64,000 bases of DNA from Escherichia coli (GCF_003334405.1 NZ_QOWM01000008.1), one strand, 5' to 3'; shown: positions 34,112-55,555, counted from the stretch's first letter. The notes: a model not told the origin generated them from the sequence alone. Program-made: numbers and translations.

Positions 34112-34211
34112 CTGCATAAAAAAATAGAGTCTGTCGACATCCGCCAGACTCTACAGTACACACAGCAGTGCATCCGCGTCTTAAATCCGGCATTGTCTCC
34201 TCTGCGCCGGT
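34112..34211 (-). ncRNA. mcaS: McaS (IsrA) small regulatory RNA
   Basis: Minus strand reads ACCGGCGCAGAGGAGACAAUGCCGGAUUUAAGACGCGGAUGCACUGCUGUGUGUACUGUAGAGUCUGGCGGAUGUCGACAGACUCUAUUUUUUUAUGCAG, matching my recollection of McaS, with a terminal hairpin and U-run. Confidence 0.7.
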
Positions 34212-37588: not shown

Positions 37589-37710
37589 GCAGGTGAATGC
37601 AACGTCAAGCGATGGGCGTTGCGCTCCATATTGTCTTACTTCCTTTTTTGAATTACTGCATAGCACAATTGATTCGTACGACGCCGACTTTGATGAGTCG
37701 GCTTTTTTTT
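37589..37710 (+). ncRNA. fnrS: FnrS small RNA
   Basis: Sequence from GCAGGUGAAUGCAACGUCAAGCGAUGGGCG to the terminator hairpin GCCGACUUUGAUGAGUCGGC plus U8, matching recalled FnrS. Confidence 0.75.
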
Positions 37711-49149: not shown

Positions 49150-49911
49150 ATGGAGACTGTTTTTGACGTACTGAAAGCAATGGGAAAAGCCACATCCATA
49201 GAACTTGCTGCGCGACTTGATATCAGTCGTGAAGAAGTGCTGAACGAACTATGGGAACTGAAAAAGGCTGGTTTCGTTGATAAAAGCGCGTACACCTGGC
49301 GTGTGGCTGATAACAACGTTCAGCAGGAACAGCCAGCGCCGGCAGAACTGCCGGAAGAAACTACCACGGCAACAGTCGCGAAAATTTCAGAGAGCGATTT
49401 AACTGCGACGATTGAACAACGTGGACCACAAACGGCGGATGAGCTGGCTACATTGTTTGGTACCACATCACGCAAAGTGGCTTCAACGCTGGCAATGGCA
49501 ATCAGCAAAGGTCGTCTGCTTCGCGTAAATCAGGGCGGTAAATTTCGTTACTGCATACCGGGCGATAATTTACCAGCAGAGCCGAAAGCAGCATCGGTAG
49601 CGGAAACTGCTGGTAAGGCCTTTCCTCAGCCCGCAGGTGTTGCGTTACCAGTACAGGAGGCTGCAACACAGGAAGATATTAAAACAGAAACTGTGGCGGA
49701 CATTGTGCAGTCGCTGCCATCGTTTACTGAAACGCGAGCGGATGACCTGGTTTTACCATCACTGCATATGGCAAACCGCGAACTGCGTCGGGCGAAAAAT
49801 CATGTCCAGAAGTGGGAGCGTGTCTGCGCCGCGCTGCGGGAGCTGAACAAGCACAGGGATATTGTACGACAGATTACTGATTCTTCCCGCCATGTTGCAT
49901 CGGAAAAGTGA
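49150..49911 (+). CDS. Prophage protein with two tandem winged-helix-like segments
   Basis: ORF 49099-49911; start placed at METVFDVLK after GGAG; two similar segments ([28 protein letters not shown] and [28 protein letters not shown]). Confidence 0.5.
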
Positions 49912-49926
49912 TTGCCGGAGGCACCT

Positions 49927-50349
49927 ATGGCAAAAGTATTTACACCAGAAGAGCGGGAAAAAATTAAAGGGCAGGTTGTTGAACTTGTACGTCTGAGCGG
50001 TCGCGAGACGTTACGGGCTCTGGAGGCTAAAACCGGTGCATCAAGGTATTACATAAGCACTCTCGCCAGAGAACTGGTCGCCAGTGGTGATGTTTACAAT
50101 TCAGGCTACGGATTATTCCCGTCTGAGCAGGCGCGTAAAGACTGGCAAAACGCCCGCAAAAAACTATCAAGGGCAAAGGTGAAGAAACCGGTTGTGGTTG
50201 ATCCTGACCTTATCTGGTCATTACCAGACGGAGAAATACGCCGTTACGACAGGCGTCTGAACATAATCTGTCGCGAGTGCCTGAAGAGAGAAGTTATGCA
50301 GCGTGTACTTGCGTTCTACCATGGAAATATTCAGGAGGTTGTGTGGTGA
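49927..50349 (+). CDS. Hypothetical prophage protein
   Basis: ORF 49912-50349; start placed at MAKVFTPEER after GGAGG; a 36-codon GTG-initiated ORF (50346-50456) with AGGAGG follows. Confidence 0.45.
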   Translation: MAKVFTPEEREKIKGQVVELVRLSGRETLRALEAKTGASRYYISTLARELVASGDVYNSGYGLFPSEQARKDWQNARKKLSRAKVKKPVVVDPDLIWSLPDGEIRRYDRRLNIICRECLKREVMQRVLAFYHGNIQEVVW

Positions 50350-50523
50350 ACAAGATTAACTATCCGTGGGTAGTCGCTGTCAATGCTTTACTTGCTGAAG
50401 TTCGGGCGGGCGCATTTAACGATCTTTGCGCGGAACAACTTCGTACGCATGAATAATTAAGTTAGCACTGTAAATAAAATTTAATCCTTAGCCGGAGGTA
50501 TTTCTGCACCCTCATAAAATCAG

Positions 50524-50547
50524 GAAACCGCCCGAAAGGGCGGTGGT
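50524..50547. terminator. Bidirectional intrinsic terminator between convergent prophage units
   Basis: Hairpin ACCGCCC-gaaa-GGGCGGT with T-rich flanks on both strands. Confidence 0.55.
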
Positions 50548-50555
50548 TTCATTGT

Positions 50556-51110
50556 TTAACTATCTAATATTGTGCTAAATCTTTTTATAACCATCAAGAA
50601 TGTTACTACGGTAAAAAAGAAGGATGAGTATGCTAAATAACTGATTATGTAAGCAGGGGTTGCGAAATACCATTTTTTTAATTCACTTGGGGTTTCTGGG
50701 AGAAAATATATTGCAACCGAAAAAATAACTAACGCTACAGATGTTAATATAGCATAAGAAACATTGTGACATAATTGCTCATATACGGTTTTATTATTAT
50801 TTAAAATTATTAGATTTGAACGTGGTTTGTTGTTTTCCTCAATGTCTGAAATTTTAAATACAGTTTTTTGTTTTTGATCGTAGATCATAATAACCGCGCT
50901 CATTAACAGTGCGGTAGTAATTGCTCCAAAGTTAACAAAAACAGATGCGATAGAGGTTTTCATTATCCCATAGGTAAAACATATGATTAATGATAATGTA
51001 AGAGGAATAATGAAGTGTATTGCGATGTCTTCGAGTAAAATATTTCCGCGTTGATCCGACATTGTTGTGTAATGTTTTTTTATTACACTCATTACGTTAA
51101 TCTTGTTCAT
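50556..51110 (-). CDS. Four-helix integral membrane protein (184 aa), downstream gene of an uncharacterised two-gene cassette
   Basis: Four hydrophobic segments of about 20 residues; start ATG overlaps the upstream gene stop (ATGA); AT-rich. Confidence 0.55.
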   Translation of the reverse strand: MNKINVMSVIKKHYTTMSDQRGNILLEDIAIHFIIPLTLSLIICFTYGIMKTSIASVFVNFGAITTALLMSAVIMIYDQKQKTVFKISDIEENNKPRSNLIILNNNKTVYEQLCHNVSYAILTSVALVIFSVAIYFLPETPSELKKWYFATPAYIISYLAYSSFFFTVVTFLMVIKRFSTILDS

Positions 51111-52039
51111 ATTTTTAATCCCCCATTACCACTATGTAACTCACTTAGTATATCATTCGCAATGATTTTAACAGTGTCATGAAGTGCTTTAAGATCGGGG
51201 ATTCCTGTAGATGCGTTTATGTTTAAGTCGTTATCATCTAATTCGGCAGAAATTCCTTTTCTTAAGATGGTGTCGTAATTAAAAATGACTGTTCTATTGC
51301 CTAATTGTAAACTAACTTTTATTGCGTCACACTTATCTTCAATTATTTCTATTATATTTCCTAGTTTTTTGTCTTTTAAGTCTTTAAAACTACCAAATAC
51401 GCCTTGATTTGCTTTTATTACCAAATCGGTTTTGATGTTTGTTTTGTTATTTCCGAATGAATCCGTGATGTCCTTTGGTGCTTTGTAACCTTGGGCTTTT
51501 ATTTGTTTTAATTCTGAATCAAGGATGTGTTGGGGGATTTTTTTGTGGCAAAGAGGATTGATTCTCGCTTCAAGTTTATATTTTGTTTTCAAGTGGTCTA
51601 GTAATGCATCAGAGAGTGTGCTGCGAGCAGAAATATTGTCATTAGCGTGAAATGCTATAATCCCTTCTTCTAAATTGTCTGGCAAAAATATTAAAATGTA
51701 ACGCTGTTTGAGAGTTACATCGTTGATAGTTGTTGTATAACGTATTTTAGTAAGTTTATCGTCTTTTATTTCACTGCTCTCACCATATTTCCCAACCTTT
51801 ACATATCCATATATTACTTGGTTTTGAGCATCAAAGGTGAGTGATGTGTGTTGTTCAAGAGAAACCTTTGTTTTCGAGAGACCAAATTCAATAGGTGTGT
51901 TTTTATAGCTATTAAAATACTCAACAAATAATTCATATGCTGTTTTTTTATCGCTTAAACCTAGGTTGTTTAGTCTTTTGCTGGTTCGGCTGCCCTTGTG
52001 GGTTAACACACGGAATGAATAGAAGTTAACGCTGTGCAT
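51107..52039 (-). CDS. Uncharacterised soluble Lys/Asn-rich protein (310 aa), upstream gene of the two-gene cassette
   Basis: No transmembrane segment or nucleotide-binding motif seen; AT-rich codon usage unlike flanking genes; coupled to the membrane gene. Confidence 0.55.
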   Translation of the reverse strand: MHSVNFYSFRVLTHKGSRTSKRLNNLGLSDKKTAYELFVEYFNSYKNTPIEFGLSKTKVSLEQHTSLTFDAQNQVIYGYVKVGKYGESSEIKDDKLTKIRYTTTINDVTLKQRYILIFLPDNLEEGIIAFHANDNISARSTLSDALLDHLKTKYKLEARINPLCHKKIPQHILDSELKQIKAQGYKAPKDITDSFGNNKTNIKTDLVIKANQGVFGSFKDLKDKKLGNIIEIIEDKCDAIKVSLQLGNRTVIFNYDTILRKGISAELDDNDLNINASTGIPDLKALHDTVKIIANDILSELHSGNGGLKI

Positions 52040-52406
52040 GAAAAGTCCTTTTGAACATATAGGAATATATTAGAGCATGAATGTGTGCAATGCATAAAAG
52101 AAAAAGCTACCGCAAGGCGACTCCACCCACAGATAGCTCTTAATTGATTGTTTGTAAAAAATAATACATTAATTATCTTCTGTGTAAAGAGGGAAACAGC
52201 CTTAGGGTAAGGGACACGAGTTGGGGGGATTGGTGAAATTTGCGTTGAGGATAAAACGATTTGCGGGAAAAGGATAGTTAAGTAGAATTGCTGCGGGTGC
52301 TTGAGGCTGTCTGCCTCGGGCATGAACACCAAAGGCAGATAGAGAAAAGCCCCAGTTAACATTACGCGTCCGGCAAGACGCTTAACATTAATCTGAGGCC
52401 ACATCT

Positions 52407-52655
52407 ATGCTTTGCATACGTAGATTAGCCTCTTACCGACCAAAAGGTCAAGGAGAAGCAGGCTATGAAGCAGCAAAAGGCGATGTTAATCACCCTGATC
52501 GTCATCTGTTTAACCGTTATAGTGACGGTACTGGTAACGAGGAAAGACCTCTGCGAGGTACGAATCCGAACCGACCAGACGGAGGTCGCTGTCTTCACAG
52601 CTTACGAACTTGGGGAGTAAGAGGACCAGCGGGGAGAAATCCCCGCAACCTCTGA
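52407..52655 (+). CDS. mok: mok-like overlapping reading frame (start uncertain)
   Basis: 82-codon ORF in another frame that fully overlaps hok, as in hok/mok/sok loci. Confidence 0.4.
   Translation: MLCIRRLASYRPKGQGEAGYEAAKGDVNHPDRHLFNRYSDGTGNEERPLRGTNPNRPDGGRCLHSLRTWGVRGPAGRNPRNL
52465..52620 (+). CDS. hok: Hok-family type I toxin (51 aa)
   Basis: Hand-translated MKQQKAMLITLIVICLTVIVTVLVTRKDLCEVRIRTDQTEVAVFTAYELGE, near-identical to recalled HokD/RelF; AAGGAG 9 nt upstream. Confidence 0.8.
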   Translation: MKQQKAMLITLIVICLTVIVTVLVTRKDLCEVRIRTDQTEVAVFTAYELGE

Positions 52656-54966: not shown

Positions 54967-55555
54967 GCTGGTTTATTGTATGCCAAATGATTATTAAAAA
55001 GGTTGTGTTAATAACAAAATCCGAAATAATATGCCTGCATATTTTTATCTTGCTTATATTCTGCATATTGTGCATAGCAGGCTCATCCCTGCAATCAAAA
55101 CTGTATGATGAGTATTTTTTGTTTTCCTTTTTTCCAGTCATCTGATGATGACCTGCTTCTTTTTAATCCGGATCGACATCAGTTTTTTAAGATAATTCCT
55201 GCGAGTTATATGCATAAATGCCACAAACTCCGCATTTTATGTGGTTGGGAGTTGCCGGGCGCGCAGTGAGTTTGCTAAGAAAACTCCTGCATGGTGAATC
55301 CCCCTGTGCGGTGGGGTGATACCATTAACCTTTTCTGTCGCCGACAGGTATCACGAACATTTTGTTCACCGGGAGGCACCCGGCACCATGTACTTCAATA
55401 GATTCTCTCCACATTATGGATATTCTTTCAGAATATCCCACGCAGACTTTGTGTAAATGTTAACAAATGTGCGTTTTATTTGATCTGATTCGCTGTTTGA
55501 GCGTCCAAAACAACGGTATATATAATCCTTTACTATATGACATATGTGAGGAAAA

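Follow-up and report, generated by a model that had tools for sequence, protein, structure and literature searches.

What do two AT-rich genes that run against their neighbors do for the prophage that carries them? The window analyzed here, a 64,000-nucleotide stretch of Escherichia coli DNA (GCF_003334405.1 NZ_QOWM01000008.1), encodes on its minus strand gene A (51107-52039), an open reading frame (ORF) of 310 amino acids, followed by gene B (50556-51110), an ORF of 184 amino acids. We conclude that the A-B cassette is probably a Rex-like two-component phage exclusion module of the abortive-infection type that a lambdoid prophage carries among its cargo. Divergent in sequence, it joins the class formed by Rex-like and DUF4747/CarolAnn systems as a new member and is not a new kind of system. 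That reading rests on the anatomy of the cassette, on the modeled fold of A and its homology to CarolAnn gp44, on the strict pairing of A with B, and on the recurrence of the pair on mobile elements and beside defense genes.

Structure and sequence relatives of A

The product of gene A is soluble and basic, with an isoelectric point of 9.0. As modeled, A consists of a split globular domain, made up of approximately residues 1 to 162 and a C-terminal helix at residues 283 to 301, into which a four-strand, four-helix domain is inserted at approximately residues 170 to 266. An initial AlphaFold2 (AF2) model, built from a shallow alignment, rendered the middle domain poorly and was replaced. In structural comparison, lambda RexA ranked first with a score of 9.5 over 159 residues, followed by IML3 (8.4), RdgC (7.7 over 195 residues), CENP-N (7.5 to 7.6), CHL4 (6.8), and the Corynebacterium glutamicum sugar epimerase 3oh8 (5.9). 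Moreover, a Foldseek search of AFDB50 returned the A family itself, followed by numerous full-length matches that bear the name "DUF4747 family protein" (E values of 1e-22 to 1e-17 and TM scores of about 0.75 to 0.8). The modeled fold of A is that of RexA, a split globular domain with an inserted dimerization domain.

DUF4747 is the motif that first linked Sbash gp30 and CarolAnn gp44 to RexA (PMC6426596, PMC6426606), and in the literature the connection of gp44 and gp30 to DUF4747 is a weak HHpred match only. Here, a profile of the A superfamily (138 sequences, with gene A as the master) aligned by hhalign with CarolAnn gp44 (KX557275) at 96.5% and an E value of 8.2e-10 over 279 columns, spanning A residues 4 to 300; the reversed control scored 10.7 and the best shuffle 20.2. 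Thus, A is homologous to gp44 over nearly its full length, although identity is only about 11% and A is 60 residues shorter. The same A profile matched a nine-sequence RexA profile with a score of 30.9 over 132 colinear columns (query 104-249, RexA 81-236), compared to 12.1 for the reversed control and a maximum of 24.8 in 120 shuffles. We regard the RexA profile match as weak, albeit above its null, and the A profile gave no significant match to a single RexA sequence. The RexA profile likewise failed to match gp44 directly at significance, and therefore it is the literature and the fold that link RexA with DUF4747. Because A matches both while RexA and gp44 do not match each other, the A family sits between them.

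Standard models did not find these relationships. Nothing in Pfam matched A even at an E value of 10, the Pfam DUF4747 model matched 0 of 93 superfamily members, and the Pfam RexA model (PF15969) matched 0 of 43 distant A members while recovering three of three RexA controls at E values down to 1e-97. PADLOC, NCBIfam, and Pfam searches over A, B, and the 93 superfamily members gave nothing meaningful, with B returning noise only, and searches of PDB sequences with the A and B profiles gave no match. In PHROGs, A and B match two families of "unknown function." A sequence-only reading of the window proposed that the pair resembles RexA/RexB in architecture, with a sensor plus a membrane protein, but that the proteins are not recognizably Rex. 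The argument from architecture is borne out, and the lack of any Pfam, NCBIfam, or PADLOC match for A agrees with the second point. Of the checks proposed in that reading, profile searches of Pfam and PADLOC came back empty and fold comparison of A was productive, with lambda RexA at first rank.

Other assignments for A or the pair were considered and rejected. RdgC and the kinetochore proteins IML3/CHL4 (CENP-L/N) are housekeeping proteins that lack a membrane partner and a mobile-element context, and no sequence relationship of A to them was detected with Pfam, even at an E value of 10. We do not place A with RdgC, as A shares neither its sequence family nor its stand-alone housekeeping context. 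A HEPN nuclease was raised by an Rx5H stretch that the sequence-only reading had already called too weak. R159 is invariant and H165 nearly so in the close family only, just "NPL" is kept across the superfamily, and the stretch aligns with the RexA EPL strand ahead of the G140 hinge. Thus, the Rx5H residues are lost across the superfamily, and the site belongs to a beta-strand and hinge of an alpha+beta fold rather than to an all-helical one. The Kiwa system resembles the pair in combining a protein with four transmembrane (TM) segments and a soluble DNA-binding protein of about 310 amino acids, both in E. coli. Kiwa (KwaA/KwaB, DUF4868, membrane gene first) was nonetheless set aside, as it had been in the earlier reading, because there was no PADLOC or Pfam match and because its published fold and gene order are not those of the pair. 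Finally, a holin or lysis cassette was briefly considered and discarded, as the pair runs antisense at a great distance from the lysis genes and is found on plasmids and inoviruses as well.

Gene B, a predicted four-helix membrane protein

B contains four uncharged stretches at residues 29 to 50, 52 to 77, 112 to 138, and 147 to 175, which bear out the four-helix membrane protein described from the sequence. Lysine and arginine residues number 12 on the N terminus, central loop, and C terminus versus 3 on the other two loops. The distribution points to a predicted N-in/C-in topology in which both termini and a charged central loop of 34 residues are cytoplasmic.

In the wide alignment, an N-terminal MxxKINV...H..T and a C-terminal KR are common to all partners, and TM2 carries VNFGAIxTALLxS...YDQ at a conservation of at least 80%. 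Within residues 59 to 80 of B (window approximately 50871-50936), VNFGAITTALLMSA..M..Q is invariant or nearly so among 31 sequences down to 39% identity, and the pattern VNFG[AS]I.TALL.S....Y[DE]Q is still recognizable in the partners of A proteins of about 20% identity. Conservation of this kind is unusually strong for a transmembrane helix, and the alignment suggests that TM2 may form a pore-lining or partner-contact surface. The partners of the two distant A members that were tested by hhalign proved homologous to B at 99.2 to 99.7%.

Pairing, family extent, and genetic contexts

The stop codon of A and the start codon of B overlap in an ATGA at 51107-51110 on the minus strand, reading ...AAA ATA TGA for the end of A and ATG AAC AAG for the beginning of B, and the arrangement suggests that the two are translationally coupled. 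Across the loci compared, the window included, a gene of 161 to 184 amino acids lay directly downstream of A in all 13 that were read (12 distinct contexts), a 4-bp overlap was found in 8 of the 10 measured, and the GC content of the cassette fell 11 to 20 points below its flanks in each of the 10 measured. As pairing, overlap, and low GC content recur, we conclude that A and B are a coinherited mobile two-gene unit. Moreover, the pair is conserved down to approximately 20% identity, and therefore A and B are not chance ORFs.

Close homologs fall into 37 clusters for A and 44 for B, all from Enterobacterales and all unnamed. Querying a word index of proteins with the wide alignment recovered the close family only. 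A profile search of 1.84 billion representatives expanded the A family to 597 clusters at an E value of ≤1e-3 and to 136 at ≤1e-10, nearly all of 300 to 315 amino acids. Some members, such as P0120 (417 amino acids) and P0230 (405 amino acids), have an N-terminal extension of about 110 to 135 residues that is without a Pfam match.

The pair resides on a variety of mobile elements. In the window, the carrier is a lambdoid prophage at the E. coli Rac locus, and in Serratia the pair occupies the same replication-to-Q slot of another lambdoid prophage (L006). A relative of 25% identity lies directly after the S24 repressor of a Halomonas P2-like prophage, in the lambda-like order repressor-A-B (L027), and two further pairs are found next to an integrase at a prophage end (L028 and L029). 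Pseudomonas phage PfAC16, a Pf inovirus, encodes a 23%-identical A-B pair adjoining its repressor (L030, 412-1883), a position at the left end of Pf filamentous prophages of P. aeruginosa. An inovirus-borne Rex-like module may be previously undescribed. Plasmids carry the pair as well. A Yersinia plasmid-like contig encodes it with ParA/ParG and ArdC (L002), and on a 5.7-kb mobilizable Col plasmid of Serratia, which also has a RelE/ParE toxin-antitoxin system, the pair is essentially the sole other cargo (L031, 604-2057). Col-type plasmids of 5.4 to 5.7 kb, mobilizable or not, carry the pair in Serratia, Klebsiella variicola, and Kluyvera, of which the Serratia plasmid was read. Plasmids of Acinetobacter and Clostridium are further carriers of the A family, and three pairs come from metagenome contigs, one of them adjoining an integrase (L015, L016, and L017).

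Some neighbors of the pair are related to defense. One pair adjoins two GmrSD_N genes, which are type IV restriction-like (L032, 4001-5790), and another adjoins an HSDR_N-like gene (L035). The A member beside the two GmrSD_N genes is one of those with an N-terminal extension. In a third case (L033, 1086-5418), an Ion_trans-domain protein, a weakly matching BRCT-domain protein, and putAbiC precede A and its 161-amino-acid partner, and the locus, which also has Bro-N, may be a small defense island on a phage-like contig.

Comparison with characterized Rex-like systems

The closest parallels are the CarolAnn gp44/gp43 and Sbash gp30/gp31 systems, in which the soluble protein precedes the small membrane protein as it does here. 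The membrane partners have four TM segments and are of similar size (178 amino acids for CarolAnn gp43, 165 for Sbash gp31, and 184 for B), and all three pairs are prophage borne. The window cassette lies outside the repressor operon, and the Sbash genes likewise rely on a promoter of their own instead of that operon. The hosts differ in phylum, however, being Proteobacteria for the window and Actinobacteria for CarolAnn and Sbash. "DUF4747/CarolAnn" has been counted among immune operons (PMC13373217), and Gentile et al. (2019) predicted "a much larger family" of such systems, to which the window cassette belongs. A 2026 paper put the number of described Rex-like systems at only five (PMC12894663).

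Lambda rexAB is downstream of and cotranscribed with cI, whereas the window cassette is antisense in the replication-to-Q region, and lambda RexB, at 144 amino acids, is unrelated to B in sequence. Dissimilarity to RexB has precedent, as Pseudomonas putida RexBpp has no detectable similarity to RexB and yet was shown to be a membrane-damaging effector (PMC12894663). The sizes of P. putida RexABpp (PP_5643/PP_5644) and the N terminus of RexApp fit the A/B family, but the primer-derived termini of RexBpp (MLIGQLANP... and ...LYYLGYKLQE) are unlike those of the B family. An exact search of representative genomes with the 5' end of rexApp gave no match.

Proposed mechanism and rival explanations

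How A and B would exclude phage is modeled on the better-known systems. A would be a cytosolic sensor of the RexA/RdgC-type fold, perhaps acting, by analogy, as a dimeric clamp. A may sense a product of phage infection, either DNA or replication or recombination intermediates as proposed for lambda RexA; alternatively, the trigger could be one particular phage protein, as in the CarolAnn and Sbash systems. Translation coupled through the ATGA would supply B in a fixed ratio to A, and activated A would trigger B to depolarize or permeabilize the inner membrane. ATP would then fall and macromolecular synthesis would stop, such that the infection aborts and growth of the cell arrests. The model predicts that A dimerizes, that A binds DNA, that the cassette is expressed in the lysogen, and that it confers an antiviral phenotype.

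Several points weigh against a Rex-like exclusion module. The role in defense is argued from homology, pairing, and context, and that of B as effector from position, topology, and analogy, such that both are putative. A has no match to the Pfam RexA or DUF4747 hidden Markov models, to NCBIfam, or to PADLOC. B showed no significant similarity to RexB profiles by hhalign and no Pfam RexB match, and its hhalign score against CarolAnn gp43 was 14.1, below the shuffle maximum of 15.6; B and gp43 may be unrelated, or related too distantly for the comparison to show it. A literature search found the accessions and PHROG identifiers of the cassette mentioned in no paper. The cassette lies outside the repressor operon, antisense in the nin region, with a candidate promoter recognized at the level of consensus, and its expression in the lysogen is putative; H-NS might silence such AT-rich cargo. 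Finally, Rex-like mechanisms are heterogeneous, as the soluble protein is the effector in Butters (PMC12894663), and lambda RexA also has a nondefense role in the bistable switch (PMC11077077).

The last two points raise explanations of their own. The logic could be reversed, with A as the antiviral effector that, for example, clamps phage DNA and blocks replication, while B anchors, sequesters, or senses. In mycobacteriophage Butters, the RexA-like gp30 is indeed the effector, kept in check by the membrane protein gp31 (PMC12894663), and in Kiwa a four-TM protein senses while a DNA-binding dimer acts. A is modeled with the RdgC/RexA clamp fold, and RdgC-type proteins interfere with DNA transactions. 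We nonetheless consider reversed roles unlikely. All but one of the five described Rex-like systems have the membrane protein as effector (PMC12894663), the Kiwa proteins differ in fold and gene order, and the TM2 motif of B is among the best-conserved features of the pair, as would be expected of an active role in the membrane more than of a passive anchor. Somewhat less likely still is that the pair serves its carrier, either as an addiction or stabilization module or as a regulator of the lysis-lysogeny switch, the latter a role described for lambda RexA, which needs no RexB to bias the bistable switch (PMC11077077). In favor of service to the carrier, the pair adjoins hok/sok in the window, and tiny Col plasmids that encode RelE/ParE have it as their main cargo. 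Lambdoid and P2-like prophages, inoviruses, and plasmids have unrelated switches, however, and together with the restriction-type neighbors, the distribution better fits portable defense than regulation suited to a single element. Moreover, heterotypic defense has been proven for the homologous CarolAnn system (PMC6426606).

Decay is a further consideration, in that the ORFs might be degenerating or hitchhiking passengers of a cryptic prophage and without current function. Surrounding Rac-type prophages are often defective, the copy of the element in strain EC11 has a frameshifted exonuclease gene and an IS3, and the cassette is rare, being present in 36 of 5,426 complete E. coli genomes (approximately 0.7%). 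Both ORFs are intact and 99.9% identical between unrelated E. coli strains, however, and pairing, overlap, and motifs are retained to about 20% identity across phyla, and so we judge loss of function highly improbable. A bolder form of the Rex-like reading seems possible and is offered only tentatively. In it, the pair would represent, in E. coli, a large multiphylum clade, of about 600 clusters at 50% identity, that the tools tested do not recognize; A would bridge the gap in sequence from lambda RexA to actinophage DUF4747; B, with VNFGAIxTALLxS...YDQ, would constitute a separate effector family, unrelated to RexB; and the pore or signaling mechanism and the trigger of A could differ from those of described Rex systems.

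The Rex-like class appears to be much larger, and much more mobile, than published work would suggest, spanning prophages, Pf inoviruses, and Col, Acinetobacter, and Clostridium plasmids, while PADLOC v2, Pfam, and NCBIfam models miss the A/B pair. By joining RexA with the DUF4747 proteins, the A family provides a deep alignment in which conserved sensor and effector surfaces can be sought, and the E. coli member is genetically tractable. A cassette that affects phage susceptibility could also be relevant to phage therapy and typing.

The locus and its cargo slot

The immediate surroundings of the cassette are as the sequence-only reading described them. The coordinates and sequence of both minus-strand ORFs and of their ATGA overlap agree with it, as do the lower GC content, the opposite strand, and the bracketing by a bidirectional terminator and a divergent hok. 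GC content is 0.324 in the cassette versus 0.488 in the remainder of the window, and the profile runs at 0.32 to 0.34 over the cassette and about 0.50 to either side. Downstream, 9 bp beyond gene B, is a candidate terminator at 50520-50547, a G+C-rich hairpin that a consensus scan rates as terminator-like whichever strand is read. Upstream and divergent to the cassette are sok (52295-52470, an Rfam match of 105 bits) and the hok ORF (52465-52620, plus strand). The intergenic region between gene A and hok/sok (52040-52294, strand not assigned) presumably holds the regulatory signals of the cassette. The best sigma-70-like promoter candidate there is TTTACA-16-TATTAT at 52161-52188 on the minus strand, which matches 10 of 12 consensus positions and precedes the start of gene A by about 120 bp; the region has no more promoter-like sites than expected from shuffled sequence, and so the site is a candidate only. 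A Shine-Dalgarno-like AAGGA precedes the ATG of gene A by 6 bases. Between the promoter candidate and the gene A start lies a weak terminator-like hairpin (52109-52121, minus strand) with a 5-bp stem and a T-run, which could be either chance or a leader attenuator.

The window also encodes small RNAs recognized by Rfam, namely, McaS (34116-34211), FnrS (37589-37706), RalA (42016-42194), and STnc100 (55259-55445). McaS, FnrS, and RalA together suggest a prophage at the Rac locus of E. coli, given their places on the K-12 map. RalA belongs to the RalR/RalA type I toxin-antitoxin system, which is also in the window.

Strain EC11 carries a copy of the cassette that is 99.9% identical, with A and B both annotated as hypothetical. 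The order there is cI/cro/YdaT/ydaV/DUF1627/DUF977, B and A on the opposite strand, hokD, DUF968, RusA, and Q, such that both the replication-side and the Q-side flanking genes are on the strand opposite to the cassette. hokD forms one edge of a variable slot in many E. coli prophages. When the window interval 49900-52650 was compared with E. coli genomes, the DUF977-hokD interval of other prophages was found to hold QueH, S-adenosylmethionine methyltransferases, an alpha/beta hydrolase, DUF7167 with hypothetical proteins, DUF5677, DUF551, ORF6N, or the Paa adhesin, and E. coli B has no insert. Because related prophages hold varied cargo or none at this position, we conclude that the DUF977-hokD slot is a real cargo hotspot, in keeping with the earlier proposal that the cassette was horizontally acquired into one. 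Several of the alternative occupants may be further uncharacterized defense or antidefense cargo.
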